Below, one piece after another: positions 136 through 1,489 of a stretch of DNA of 1,552 nucleotides. A program made the translations under genes and the position numbers. The notes under the pieces were generated by a model. It did not search any database and was not told where the DNA came from. It saw only the letters and a list, made by a program, of their open reading frames with translations. Location: the NCBI RefSeq assembly GCF_013315695.1, contig NZ_CP054362.1; one strand, given 5' to 3'. Within the stretch, counting starts at the first letter, position 1; each line of letters starts with the position of its first letter. Source of the stretch: Escherichia coli (GTDB lineage Bacteria; Pseudomonadota; Gammaproteobacteria; Enterobacterales; Enterobacteriaceae).

Positions 136-612
136 ATGTTTATTGATTCAGAAAAACGACTGAAACAACTTTCAGATGAGGCAAAGAAAAACACCGAGGA
201 TCTCGAAGAAGCAAAGAAGAATTCAAGGTTTACACAGGTATCCCCAAAAGGTTGGGAACGCGTTCGAGAGCTGCTGAAGGATAGCCAAGGCATATCAGCA
301 CTGAAGCTGTACTCATTTTTAGCGGAGCATATCGATCCTACGTGTGGCGCTGTCGTTGCGGATCAGCAATTCCTAGCTGAAAAACTTGGAGTTAGCAGAA
401 GCACAATTATTCGTTGGCTCAATTACTTAGAATCAAAAAATGCATTAGTTAGAATCCCCGTTGCTGGTAAGGTTTGTGCGTATGCCCTCGATCCACATGA
501 AGTCTGGAAGGGATACAACACTACGAAAAACCATGCAGCATTTGTCACTAAAACACTGGTCAACAAAGACGGTGATATTCAGCGCCGAATCATGGCCATG
601 TTTTCAAATTGA
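136..612 (+). CDS. repA: Small winged-helix replication initiator protein (RepA/RepL-like), 158 aa, about 18 kDa
   Basis: Only ORF with a proper RBS and ATG start, ending in TGA at 610-612. Its GC content is clearly lower than the downstream DNA. A helix-turn-helix motif is visible at residues ~77-100 (QQFLAEKLGVSRSTIIRWLNYLES, nt 364-435), followed by a wing-like beta region (VRIPVAGKVCAYALDPHEVWKG). Iteron-like repeats sit directly upstream. The Rep call and the symbol are inferred from architecture and motif resemblance, not from a search. Confidence 0.8.
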   Translation: MFIDSEKRLKQLSDEAKKNTEDLEEAKKNSRFTQVSPKGWERVRELLKDSQGISALKLYSFLAEHIDPTCGAVVADQQFLAEKLGVSRSTIIRWLNYLESKNALVRIPVAGKVCAYALDPHEVWKGYNTTKNHAAFVTKTLVNKDGDIQRRIMAMFSN

Positions 613-948
613 GCCAGCGGCAGGCGGACAATCAGGGGCTACGTGTTAACGTTCTGACCATGATTGTCTATCCTGCATTGCTCTTTTGCCGCCTCAAAAT
701 CCCTTGCGTGTTTTTGCTCCCCGATCTCCAGAACGACCGAGCCGCCACGGTTCCGGCAGCGCCTTGAGCGCAACCGGAAACCGTCTGGGGAGAACCCCAG
801 ACCCCCATCGCTGTAACACCGACGGTCTACGACCACCTACCAACCGAGTGACTGCCTGTACCGTGCAAATGGGCTTTGCAGGGGGCTGGCGCGGTTCCTG
901 GCGACCTGAAAGCCCCTGGCTAGGGGTATCGGCGCGCCTGACCTCCTG

Positions 949-969
949 AAACGCTCTGTAAGCGTTTTT
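949..969 (+). terminator. Hairpin aaacgct-ctgta-agcgttt followed by tt; weak candidate intrinsic terminator or single-strand structural element
   Basis: 7-bp stem (949-955 pairs with 961-967), 5-nt loop, T-run 965-969. The stem is AT-rich and lies ~340 nt downstream of the rep stop, so a terminator role is uncertain. Confidence 0.2.
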
Positions 970-979
970 CGCGCCTTCC

Positions 980-995
980 ATGCCCTGACGGGCAT
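980..995. other. Hairpin atgccc-tgac-gggcat (6-bp stem, 4-nt loop)
   Basis: Exact inverted repeat read from sequence; function unknown. Possibly part of a single-strand initiation or priming signal. Confidence 0.3.
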
Positions 996-1106
996 TTAAA
1001 CCCCGCCTCGTGCGTCTGAGAGCTTCTGAGCGCGTTTGAAGGGCTATCTGACGACTCATCCCCGAAAGAACAACAGCGGAATCACCGACAACATGCGAGA
1101 GGTGGC

Positions 1107-1168
1107 ACCGCTCGCCGCAGCCCCAGCGACCGAACGTTAGTGAGCGAGTGGGCGAGGAAGCGGAAGAG
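1107..1168. other. ColE1/pMB1-like conserved non-coding segment, matching the block just downstream of the ColE1 replication origin; candidate lagging-strand priming (primosome assembly) region
   Basis: accgctcgccgcagcc...gtgagcgag...gcgaggaagcggaagag closely matches the pBR322/pUC backbone sequence as I remember it. No RNA I/RNA II-like sequence precedes it. The priming-site function is an inference. Confidence 0.45.
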
Positions 1169-1204
1169 AACCGGAAACCACATTGAGCACGTACGCACTG
1201 ATAC

Positions 1205-1229
1205 GGGGTGTCGGGGCGAAGCCCTGACC
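1205..1229. repeat. Left arm of a perfect 25-bp inverted repeat (ggggtgtcggggcgaagccctgacc)
   Basis: Exact reverse complement of 1434-1458, separated by 204 bp. Confidence 0.9.
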
Positions 1230-1397
1230 AGATGGCAAACGGAATATCGTCGCGGGTGACGGTATTACATTTGCACATCCTGTCCCGATTTCTGCGGGGG
1301 TTAACGGTGAACGGACGGCAAAAAACGTGCAGGAGCTGTTGAACGTGAAAACCACGAAATCTGGCAAAAATCACGGCTGGCGAGGCTTGCAGAGGAG

Positions 1398-1458
1398 TAA
1401 GCCAGTATACACTCCGCTATCGCTACGTGACTGGGTCAGGGCTTCGCCCCGACACCCC
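1398..1458 (-). other. ColE1/pMB1-type oriT (bom) nick region; predicted nick on the minus strand near 1400-1403 (CTGG/CTTA on that strand)
   Basis: The minus strand reads gggtgtcggggcgaagccctgacccagtcacgtagcgatagcggagtgtatactggctta, nearly identical to the pBR322 bom/nic region as I remember it. Nick position is by analogy with ColE1 relaxase (MbeA) cleavage. No relaxase gene is present in the window. Confidence 0.6.
1434..1458. repeat. Right arm of the perfect 25-bp inverted repeat; this arm belongs to the ColE1-type bom/oriT homology
   Basis: Exact reverse complement of 1205-1229. The sequence corresponds to the bom-proximal pBR322 segment gggtgtcggggcgcagccatgacc with a few substitutions. 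Confidence 0.9.
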
Positions 1459-1460
1459 CA

Positions 1461-1489
1461 AAGGGCGTTGCGTTGCGCGCAACACCCTT
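1461..1489. repeat. Imperfect inverted repeat containing a perfect 12-bp palindrome GTTGCGCGCAAC (1472-1483)
   Basis: The 12-mer is self-complementary. Flanking aaggg (1461-1465) and ccctt (1485-1489) extend the dyad, with a duplicated gttgcg on the left arm. Confidence 0.7.

Follow-up and report, generated by a model that had tools for sequence, protein, structure and literature searches.

A perfect 25-bp inverted repeat on a 1552-bp plasmid of Escherichia coli: probable signature of two different orphan oriTs placed head to head

Introduction

The whole stretch of DNA analysed here (the window; 1,552 nucleotides) is a complete circular plasmid of 1552 bp. The same sequence is deposited as pJJ1886_1 (NC_022661) and under many further 1552-bp entries from E. 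coli, E. fergusonii, Klebsiella and Enterobacter. On this plasmid, a 25-bp sequence is present twice in inverted orientation with a 204-bp segment in between. An earlier note on the same DNA had pointed out this dyad and listed several possibilities for it, including a long hairpin in transferred single-stranded DNA, a cruciform, inversion of the nick region, and a relic of template switching. Why, then, does so small a plasmid carry so long an inverted repeat? Our answer is that the repeat is very probably the signature of two different orphan oriTs, one of the I-complex type and the other of the ColE1 type, set head to head on a 1.5-kb plasmid that lacks a relaxase.

Results

Plasmid carrying the inverted repeat

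At least 80% of the window was covered in 334 PLSDB records. Plasmid typing identified a Col(MG828) replicon, the plasmid being of the Col(MG828)/pKL1 type, and the MOB-suite call was 'mobilizable'. The sole credible gene is repA (136-612, + strand), which encodes RepA of 158 aa, annotated as a helix-turn-helix protein. As judged from both ORFs and annotation, neither a relaxase nor an accessory gene is present in the 1552-bp plasmid, and no recombinase was found among its ORFs. Only short ORFs, all without support, were detected within the 204-bp segment, and no RNA family of Rfam was recognised anywhere in the 1552 bp at E ≤ 1. Upstream of repA, tandem and inverted TGTCGCATCC-like units are located at 3-50, and these are probably RepA binding sites or origin iterons. 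Large parts of the 1488-bp record NC_004833.1 are 100% identical to the window plasmid; its recorded host is Corynebacterium renale, an assignment that looks doubtful. Several metagenome contigs (L009, L013, L034 and others) carry 1.5-kb plasmids of this family in two or three copies, arranged in tandem or mixed. Such contigs could have arisen as concatemers during assembly, or else represent genuine multimers or cointegrates formed by related variants.

The inverted repeat was confirmed by both a repeat search and a direct check. The arms at 1205-1229 (GGGGTGTCGGGGCGAAGCCCTGACC) and 1434-1458 are reverse complements at 25 of 25 positions and are separated by 204 nt, as had been described. No longer inverted repeat is present in the window. 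When the sequence was shuffled 300 times with its composition preserved, the maximum length of an exact inverted repeat ranged from 8 to 14 nt; the 25-bp repeat is well beyond chance.

Right arm within a ColE1-type oriT

The right arm (1434-1458, − strand) is the same hairpin element as the left arm, and forms part of a ColE1-type orphan oriT (bom) located at 1398-1458 on the − strand. Here the hairpin element is followed by GTATACTGG/CTTA (the slash marks the nick), with a predicted nick at 1402/1401. The sequence between 1398 and 1457 is 98.3% identical to ColE1 1462-1521, in agreement with the earlier assignment of this arm to a ColE1-type bom, and 100% identical to that of the ColE1-like Rop plasmid pRHB12-C04_4. 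The ColE1 nick motif was found on the − strand at 1409-1398. The MbeA nick in ColE1 has reportedly been mapped, and we take it to be CTGG/CTTA at 1469-1462, which is consistent with the coordinates of the ColE1 record. On the 3′ side of the nick, the homology to ColE1 is lost after 4 nt, immediately after CTTA, so that the ColE1-type oriT of this plasmid could be a remnant.

A second ColE1-like block is located at 1107-1168 (82% identity to ColE1 1308-1367), and together with the ColE1-type oriT it frames inserted DNA. The corresponding region of ColE1 presumably holds a primosome-assembly or single-strand-initiation site; the block is also similar to non-coding DNA on the origin side of IncX4. 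The two ColE1-like blocks (1107-1168 and 1398-1457) are separated by 229 nt in the window vs 94 nt in ColE1. The difference of about 135 nt, measured here against ColE1, is close to the estimate of about 120 nt relative to pBR322 in the earlier note. The DNA between the blocks was found to consist of an I-type oriT and a 104-nt spacer. Alignment to the ColE1 family thus bears out the extra DNA, but the left arm belongs to the I-type oriT.

Left arm within an I-complex oriT

The left arm (1205-1229, + strand), forming an exact inverted repeat with the right arm, is the distal hairpin element of an I-complex-type oriT. Its stem of 8 bp, including one G-T pair, is formed between 1210-1217 and 1221-1228 with a GAA loop at 1218-1220. 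We assign the surrounding 92 nt (1202-1293, + strand) to an orphan oriT of the I-complex (R64-type, NikA/NikB) on the basis of 92% identity over 90 nt to the site upstream of nikA, with a predicted nick at 1282/1283. The sequence 1202-1291/1292 is 92.2-92.3% identical to 3001-3090/3091 of two reference loci (L002 and L003), and 1202-1291 was matched at about 90-92% identity in thousands of large plasmids. In pSCU-484-1 (IncI1/B/O) and pSAN1-1727 (IncI-gamma/K), the match is located 12 nt upstream of nikA, which is followed by the relaxase gene nikB; this is the position of the I-complex oriT. The left arm sequence is identical in the IncI1/B/O and IncI-gamma/K plasmids beside nikA. By alignment, TACGGGGTGTCGGGGCGAAGCCCTGACCAGATGGCAA, GACGGTATTAC and the nick region GCACATCCTGTCCCG are common to the window and the I-complex sites.

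Two sets of inverted repeats are located on the 5′ side of the predicted nick. The distal hairpin is intact, and the nick-proximal inverted repeat (1235-1246 / 1263-1274, + strand) keeps 10 of 12 pairs, compared with a perfect repeat (12/12) in IncI1/B/O; this imperfection could lower the termination efficiency. The presumed NikA site, repeat A (GGTATTAC; 1261-1268, + strand), is overlapped by the right arm of the proximal repeat. The roles of the oriT core and of repeat A in R64 are taken here as described in the pEC156 paper (PMC4743918). In the window, repeat A precedes CATCCTG/TCCCG, and GACGGTATTACATTTGCACATCCTGTCCCG differs by one base from the IncI1/B/O sequence. The nick within this region, CACATCCTG/TCCCG on the + strand, was predicted by homology to the MOBP consensus and to R64. 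A predicted nick therefore lies within the bracketed segment, as had been claimed, but there are two predicted sites on opposite strands, not one. When each oriT was folded alone, its arm formed a local hairpin with the 8-bp stem and the GAA loop.

This assignment bears on the origin of the left arm, which had been regarded as an inverted extra copy of the right arm. In ColE1 the element is present in one copy only, and the second arm is indeed missing there. A relic of template switching, or of local inverted duplication of the ColE1 bom arm, would explain the identity of the two arms, and a co-varying pair of arm substitutions in one lineage (L008/L054; see below) could reflect correction by template switching or gene conversion. 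However, the homology to I-complex oriTs begins 3 nt outside the left arm and extends 64 nt beyond it; the arm is the native end of this 92-nt block, and the same arm is native to I-complex plasmids without a ColE1 oriT. Since the homology runs past both ends of the arm, a template-switch copy was taken to be ruled out, and the relic as a whole is extremely improbable.

Hairpin element shared between the two oriT families

The element GGGTGTCGGGGCG(A/C)AGCCCTGACC, about 24 nt in length with an 8-bp stem and a GAA or GCA loop, is native to both the I-complex and the ColE1 oriTs. The exact arm was found alone in I-complex plasmids without a ColE1 oriT, and likewise alone in ColE1-like plasmids without an I-type match at blastn sensitivity. 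Because both oriT families natively carry this element, any convergent pairing of the two gives the inverted repeat, and no duplication is needed. Selection for arm-to-arm pairing would not be required either.

A related element, GGGTGGTCGGGCGTGAGCCTGAC, is carried by CloDF13 (L063, around 9752). This homology allows a different view, in which the arms themselves are nick sites for a CloDF13-type relaxase and constitute two further origins on opposite strands. According to a citing paper, the CloDF13 nick was mapped within GGGTG/GTCGGG (after Nunez and de la Cruz 2001), and the arms read GGGTGTCGGGG. However, the arms are one G short of the sequence nicked in CloDF13, and by BLAST the remainder of that oriT has no counterpart in the window. 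Nicking at the arms is thus regarded as very unlikely, and the arms are better understood as the hairpin ends of two different oriTs.

Lack of conservation of arm-to-arm pairing

Versions of the dual-oriT module were collected by using a pattern anchored on the two nick cores, which gave 48 metagenome contigs; together with the plasmid loci, 32 distinct versions were obtained. The arms showed no mismatch in 10 versions, one mismatch in 11, two in 4, three in 6, and four in 1. The commonest mismatch was T in the left arm vs C in the right arm. The spacing between the arms was constant (201-204 nt) across the module versions. In two 1549-bp relatives (L008 and L054), the same C-to-T change was observed in both arms, at the equivalents of window positions 1217 and 1446, and the repeat stays perfect; a single conversion or template switch, occurring between inverted repeats that lie close together, could account for this double change.

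These data were used for evaluation of the possibility that, in the strand being transferred, the arms anneal to form a long hairpin or panhandle, and that this pairing is under selection. Such a structure could hold the ends of the T-strand together so that it recircularises, or keep one origin inactive during use of the other. When the sequence 1195-1470 was folded as single-stranded DNA, the arms paired on either strand (MFE, −71.6 and −62.2 kcal/mol; z, −8.0 and −6.25), but such a strong fold is automatic for any 25-nt complement. The constant arm spacing and the maintenance of a perfect repeat in the L008/L054 lineage also agree with selected pairing. In contrast, one to four arm mismatches were detected in 22 of the 32 module versions, without general covariation. 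Furthermore, after either nick the arms would be placed at opposite ends of a 1.5-kb linear strand, each folding locally, and each arm is fully accounted for by its own oriT. With one co-varying case against 22 mismatched versions among the 32 tabulated, selected arm pairing was rejected as a candidate, and we consider it unlikely that the panhandle has a role. The same mismatches speak against the long hairpin and the cruciform of the earlier note, in which the dyad acts as a unit.

Orientation of the bracketed segment

The 204-bp segment might also be an invertible element, which flips by way of the arms and thereby changes the strand or direction of transfer. Perfect inverted repeats of 25 bp can allow rare homologous recombination, although this length is near the lower limit for RecA-dependent exchange. 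As the arms are identical, a flip would leave both origins intact. With a synthetic inverted query, however, no PLSDB record was found at 80% or higher coverage, in contrast to 345 records for the native orientation. In addition, the pas-side flank (CGCACTGAT) adjoins the I-type arm in 51 of 51 metagenome copies, and the backbone-specific flank adjoins the ColE1-type arm in all 51. The plasmid has no recombinase. The invertible segment was rejected, as neither a second orientation (none in 345 records and 51 copies) nor a recombinase ORF was found, and we give it hardly any credence. Related plasmids share the arrangement without any sign of inversion, an outcome that the earlier note itself had named as telling against its proposal.

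Covariation in the I-type oriT variants

A total of 13 distinct variants of the I-type oriT from these small plasmids were compared. The nick-proximal repeat keeps its pairing while its sequence changes, as seen in GCAATTGTAATA, GTAATCGTAT, GCATTTGTC, GGGAATGTC and GTCATCGGAT, for example. Compensatory changes were observed in 8 of its 12 pairs across the 13 variants. The fraction of paired cells was 93.8%, vs about 33-44% when the partner was slid, and the covariation score was reached by none of 500 shuffles. In the distal hairpin, on the other hand, five of the eight stem pairs are invariant, one varies on one side only, and two depart only by unpaired cells; no compensatory change was found in this hairpin across the 13 variants. 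The covariation of the proximal repeat argues for working I-type origins with diverged helper specificity, and thus points to I-type oriTs of these plasmids that would be functional and tuned to different helpers. The variation pattern is the one expected if a constant distal hairpin were combined with a specificity-determining proximal repeat.

Distribution of the module and its spacer

The dual-oriT module was detected in 329 of 5,426 complete E. coli genomes, and also in records of Klebsiella, Enterobacter and E. fergusonii. The sequence corresponding to window 608-1463 recurs with other replicons, for instance in a 1901-bp RepL plasmid. On the right, the module stops precisely where the right arm reaches its outer limit, and beyond this point at least 8 different right-hand flanks were found.

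The spacer between the two nick regions (1294-1397; 104 nt) was as conserved as the origins in a conservation profile across 34 module versions. A search with 1292-1398 gave 510 records; among the matches listed, only small plasmids of the module family (1.4-2.8 kb) were found, with no large-plasmid source or donor context for the spacer. The single-strand structure of the spacer is unremarkable, with z of about 0 on both strands. In both directions of transfer, the spacer would lead the strand into the recipient. If the inverted repeat is a by-product of the two oriTs, recent common ancestry is the sole account of both the conserved spacer and the fixed arm spacing.

A different layout of the same elements was observed in pRHB12-C04_4 (L006; 3256 bp). 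Here a ColE1-type and an I-like oriT, at 750-809 and 1100-1186, are arranged back to back, the arms facing each other across rop and the nicks pointing outward. These two types of origin have therefore come together on more than one occasion.

IncX4-type element and other matches

The sequence at 626-686 (+ strand) is very likely a third orphan oriT, of the IncX4 type, with 85% identity to IncX4 plasmids and a predicted nick at 675/676. It includes an 11-bp inverted repeat (627-637 / 658-668) followed directly by TATCCTG/C (669-676), and its single-strand fold gave z = −4.7. In pSH696_34 (IncX4; L062), the site is present twice in inverted orientation, at 17071-17017 and 8658-8718, and one of the two copies is located 51 bp upstream of the relaxase operon ddp1-taxC.

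Other matches to non-coding DNA were found within 806-1165. With about 80% identity, 806-995 matches a non-coding region that immediately follows repA in IncN-type plasmids (L058 and L059). The sequences 948-1100 and 986-1165 are similar to the non-coding interval that separates the pir-like rep gene from the gene after it in IncX/IncX4 plasmids (L057 and L062). The stretches within 806-1100 are GC-rich and hairpin-forming. A nick-like motif was not found in either 806-995 or 948-1100, and these were rejected as further oriTs; the stretches within 806-1100 are probably replication or priming elements, and possibly single-strand-initiation sites.

Discussion

The 25-bp inverted repeat is thus best explained by the meeting of two oriTs that natively carry the same terminal hairpin. 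From the homology and the comparative patterns, we infer that both origins function, and the following route is proposed. In the presence of an I-complex conjugative plasmid, NikA/NikB would nick the + strand in trans at 1282/1283 and transfer that strand. If a ColE1-family Mob+ plasmid is present together with a conjugative helper, MbeA/MbeC would nick the − strand at 1402/1401, and the other strand would be transferred in the opposite direction. In each route the arm would be transferred last and fold as a local hairpin, and the relaxase may then use the arm hairpin and the nick region to end the round of transfer. The plasmid can probably ride, therefore, on two kinds of helper plasmid and, when the IncX4-type element is included, it seems to carry origins for three helper families. 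The wide spread of this gene-poor 1.5-kb plasmid may be due to the two, probably three, orphan oriTs that it carries. Relaxases could be borrowed from I-complex, ColE1-family and IncX4 plasmids, which are themselves carriers of much clinical resistance. In this sense, the plasmid offers a small natural model for studying helper range and mobilisation by relaxases supplied in trans. Its dyad is neither a switch nor a cruciform.

One hairpin element of about 24 nt seems to be common to the origins of the I-complex, ColE1 and CloDF13, with the nick in different places. This sharing is relevant to how oriT specificity is apportioned to a hairpin that stays constant and a nick-proximal repeat that varies. 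A more extended reading would combine all these observations: the plasmid could be a near-minimal multi-helper hitchhiker, which apart from the replicon would largely consist of orphan oriTs for unrelated helper systems, of the IncX4 type (626-686), the I-complex type (1202-1293) and the ColE1 type (1398-1458), with arms possibly usable by CloDF13-type relaxases as well; the convergent pair of I-type and ColE1-type oriTs, including the conserved spacer of 104 nt and the constant arm spacing, might be a selected cassette and no accident, the hairpin a joint at which oriT cores are exchanged by recombination, and the spacer a common leading region for transfer in both directions. We offer this only as a tentative and rather doubtful extension.

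In comparison with known systems, the I-type block resembles the R64 or I-complex oriT (MOBP) in the distal 8-bp hairpin, the repeat A site and the nick region CATCCTG/TCCCG. It is unlike R64 in being an orphan, without nikA/nikB nearby, and in the divergence of the left half of the proximal repeat. The other block is like the ColE1/pMB1 bom, with 98% identity from the nick motif to the hairpin, and mob genes are absent in cis as in pBR322. The ColE1/pMB1 bom is used by MbeA-MbeC in trans, as in the case of pBR322. Differences from ColE1 are the divergence beyond CTTA on the 3′ side of the nick, A instead of C in the loop, and a replicon that is not of the ColE1 type. Two inverted copies of oriT on a single plasmid are also reportedly present in R6K and other IncX plasmids. 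There, however, the copies are identical and kilobases apart, and the plasmid is self-transmissible with its own relaxase.

Closer parallels are found among small plasmids. As described in the report on pEC156, this plasmid carries two functional orphan oriTs, one F-type and one R64-like of 93 bp (PMC4743918); the I-type block of the window, at 92 nt, matches the functional R64-like oriT of about 93 bp in length. Both plasmids are small and relaxase-less, with more than one orphan oriT for different helpers. In pEC156, unlike the window plasmid, the second type is F-like, the oriTs are not head to head, and no arm is shared.

The closest design is that of pBuzz. According to citing papers, pBuzz (Moran and Hall 2019, Plasmid 101:10) is 1982 bp in length and has two oriTs in inverse orientation; a B/O plasmid mobilises it, supplying the relaxase in trans. 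Among the papers covered, which describe pBuzz by citation, a literature search for Col(MG828) or pJJ1886_1 in combination with oriT gave no analysis of the present module. One of the loci compared here, a 1983-bp rolling-circle-type plasmid (L061), carries two convergent I-type oriTs with the same arms and an inverted repeat of about 80 bp, and fits the published description of pBuzz as relayed by those papers. The window plasmid and L061 have the same layout, with convergent orphan oriTs on opposite strands of a tiny relaxase-less plasmid, the GGGGTGTCGGGGCGAAGCCCTGACC hairpins outermost and the nicks pointing inward. Following the I-type nick, the window has the same flank (ATTTCTGCGGG) as one of the two oriTs of L061. 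The distance between the nicks is 119 nt in the window vs about 266 nt in L061. Both oriTs of L061 are of the I-complex type, whereas one partner here is of the ColE1 type, so that only 25 bp are shared. The replicons also differ, with a rolling-circle Rep in the pBuzz-like plasmid and a theta-type RepA of the Col(MG828)/pKL1-like group in the window. Since the two partners are of different types, the I-complex and ColE1, the arrangement is a variant of the pBuzz design and not a plain member of it; as far as pBuzz is described in the citing papers, it is a heterotypic variant of the pBuzz-type paired inverse oriTs.
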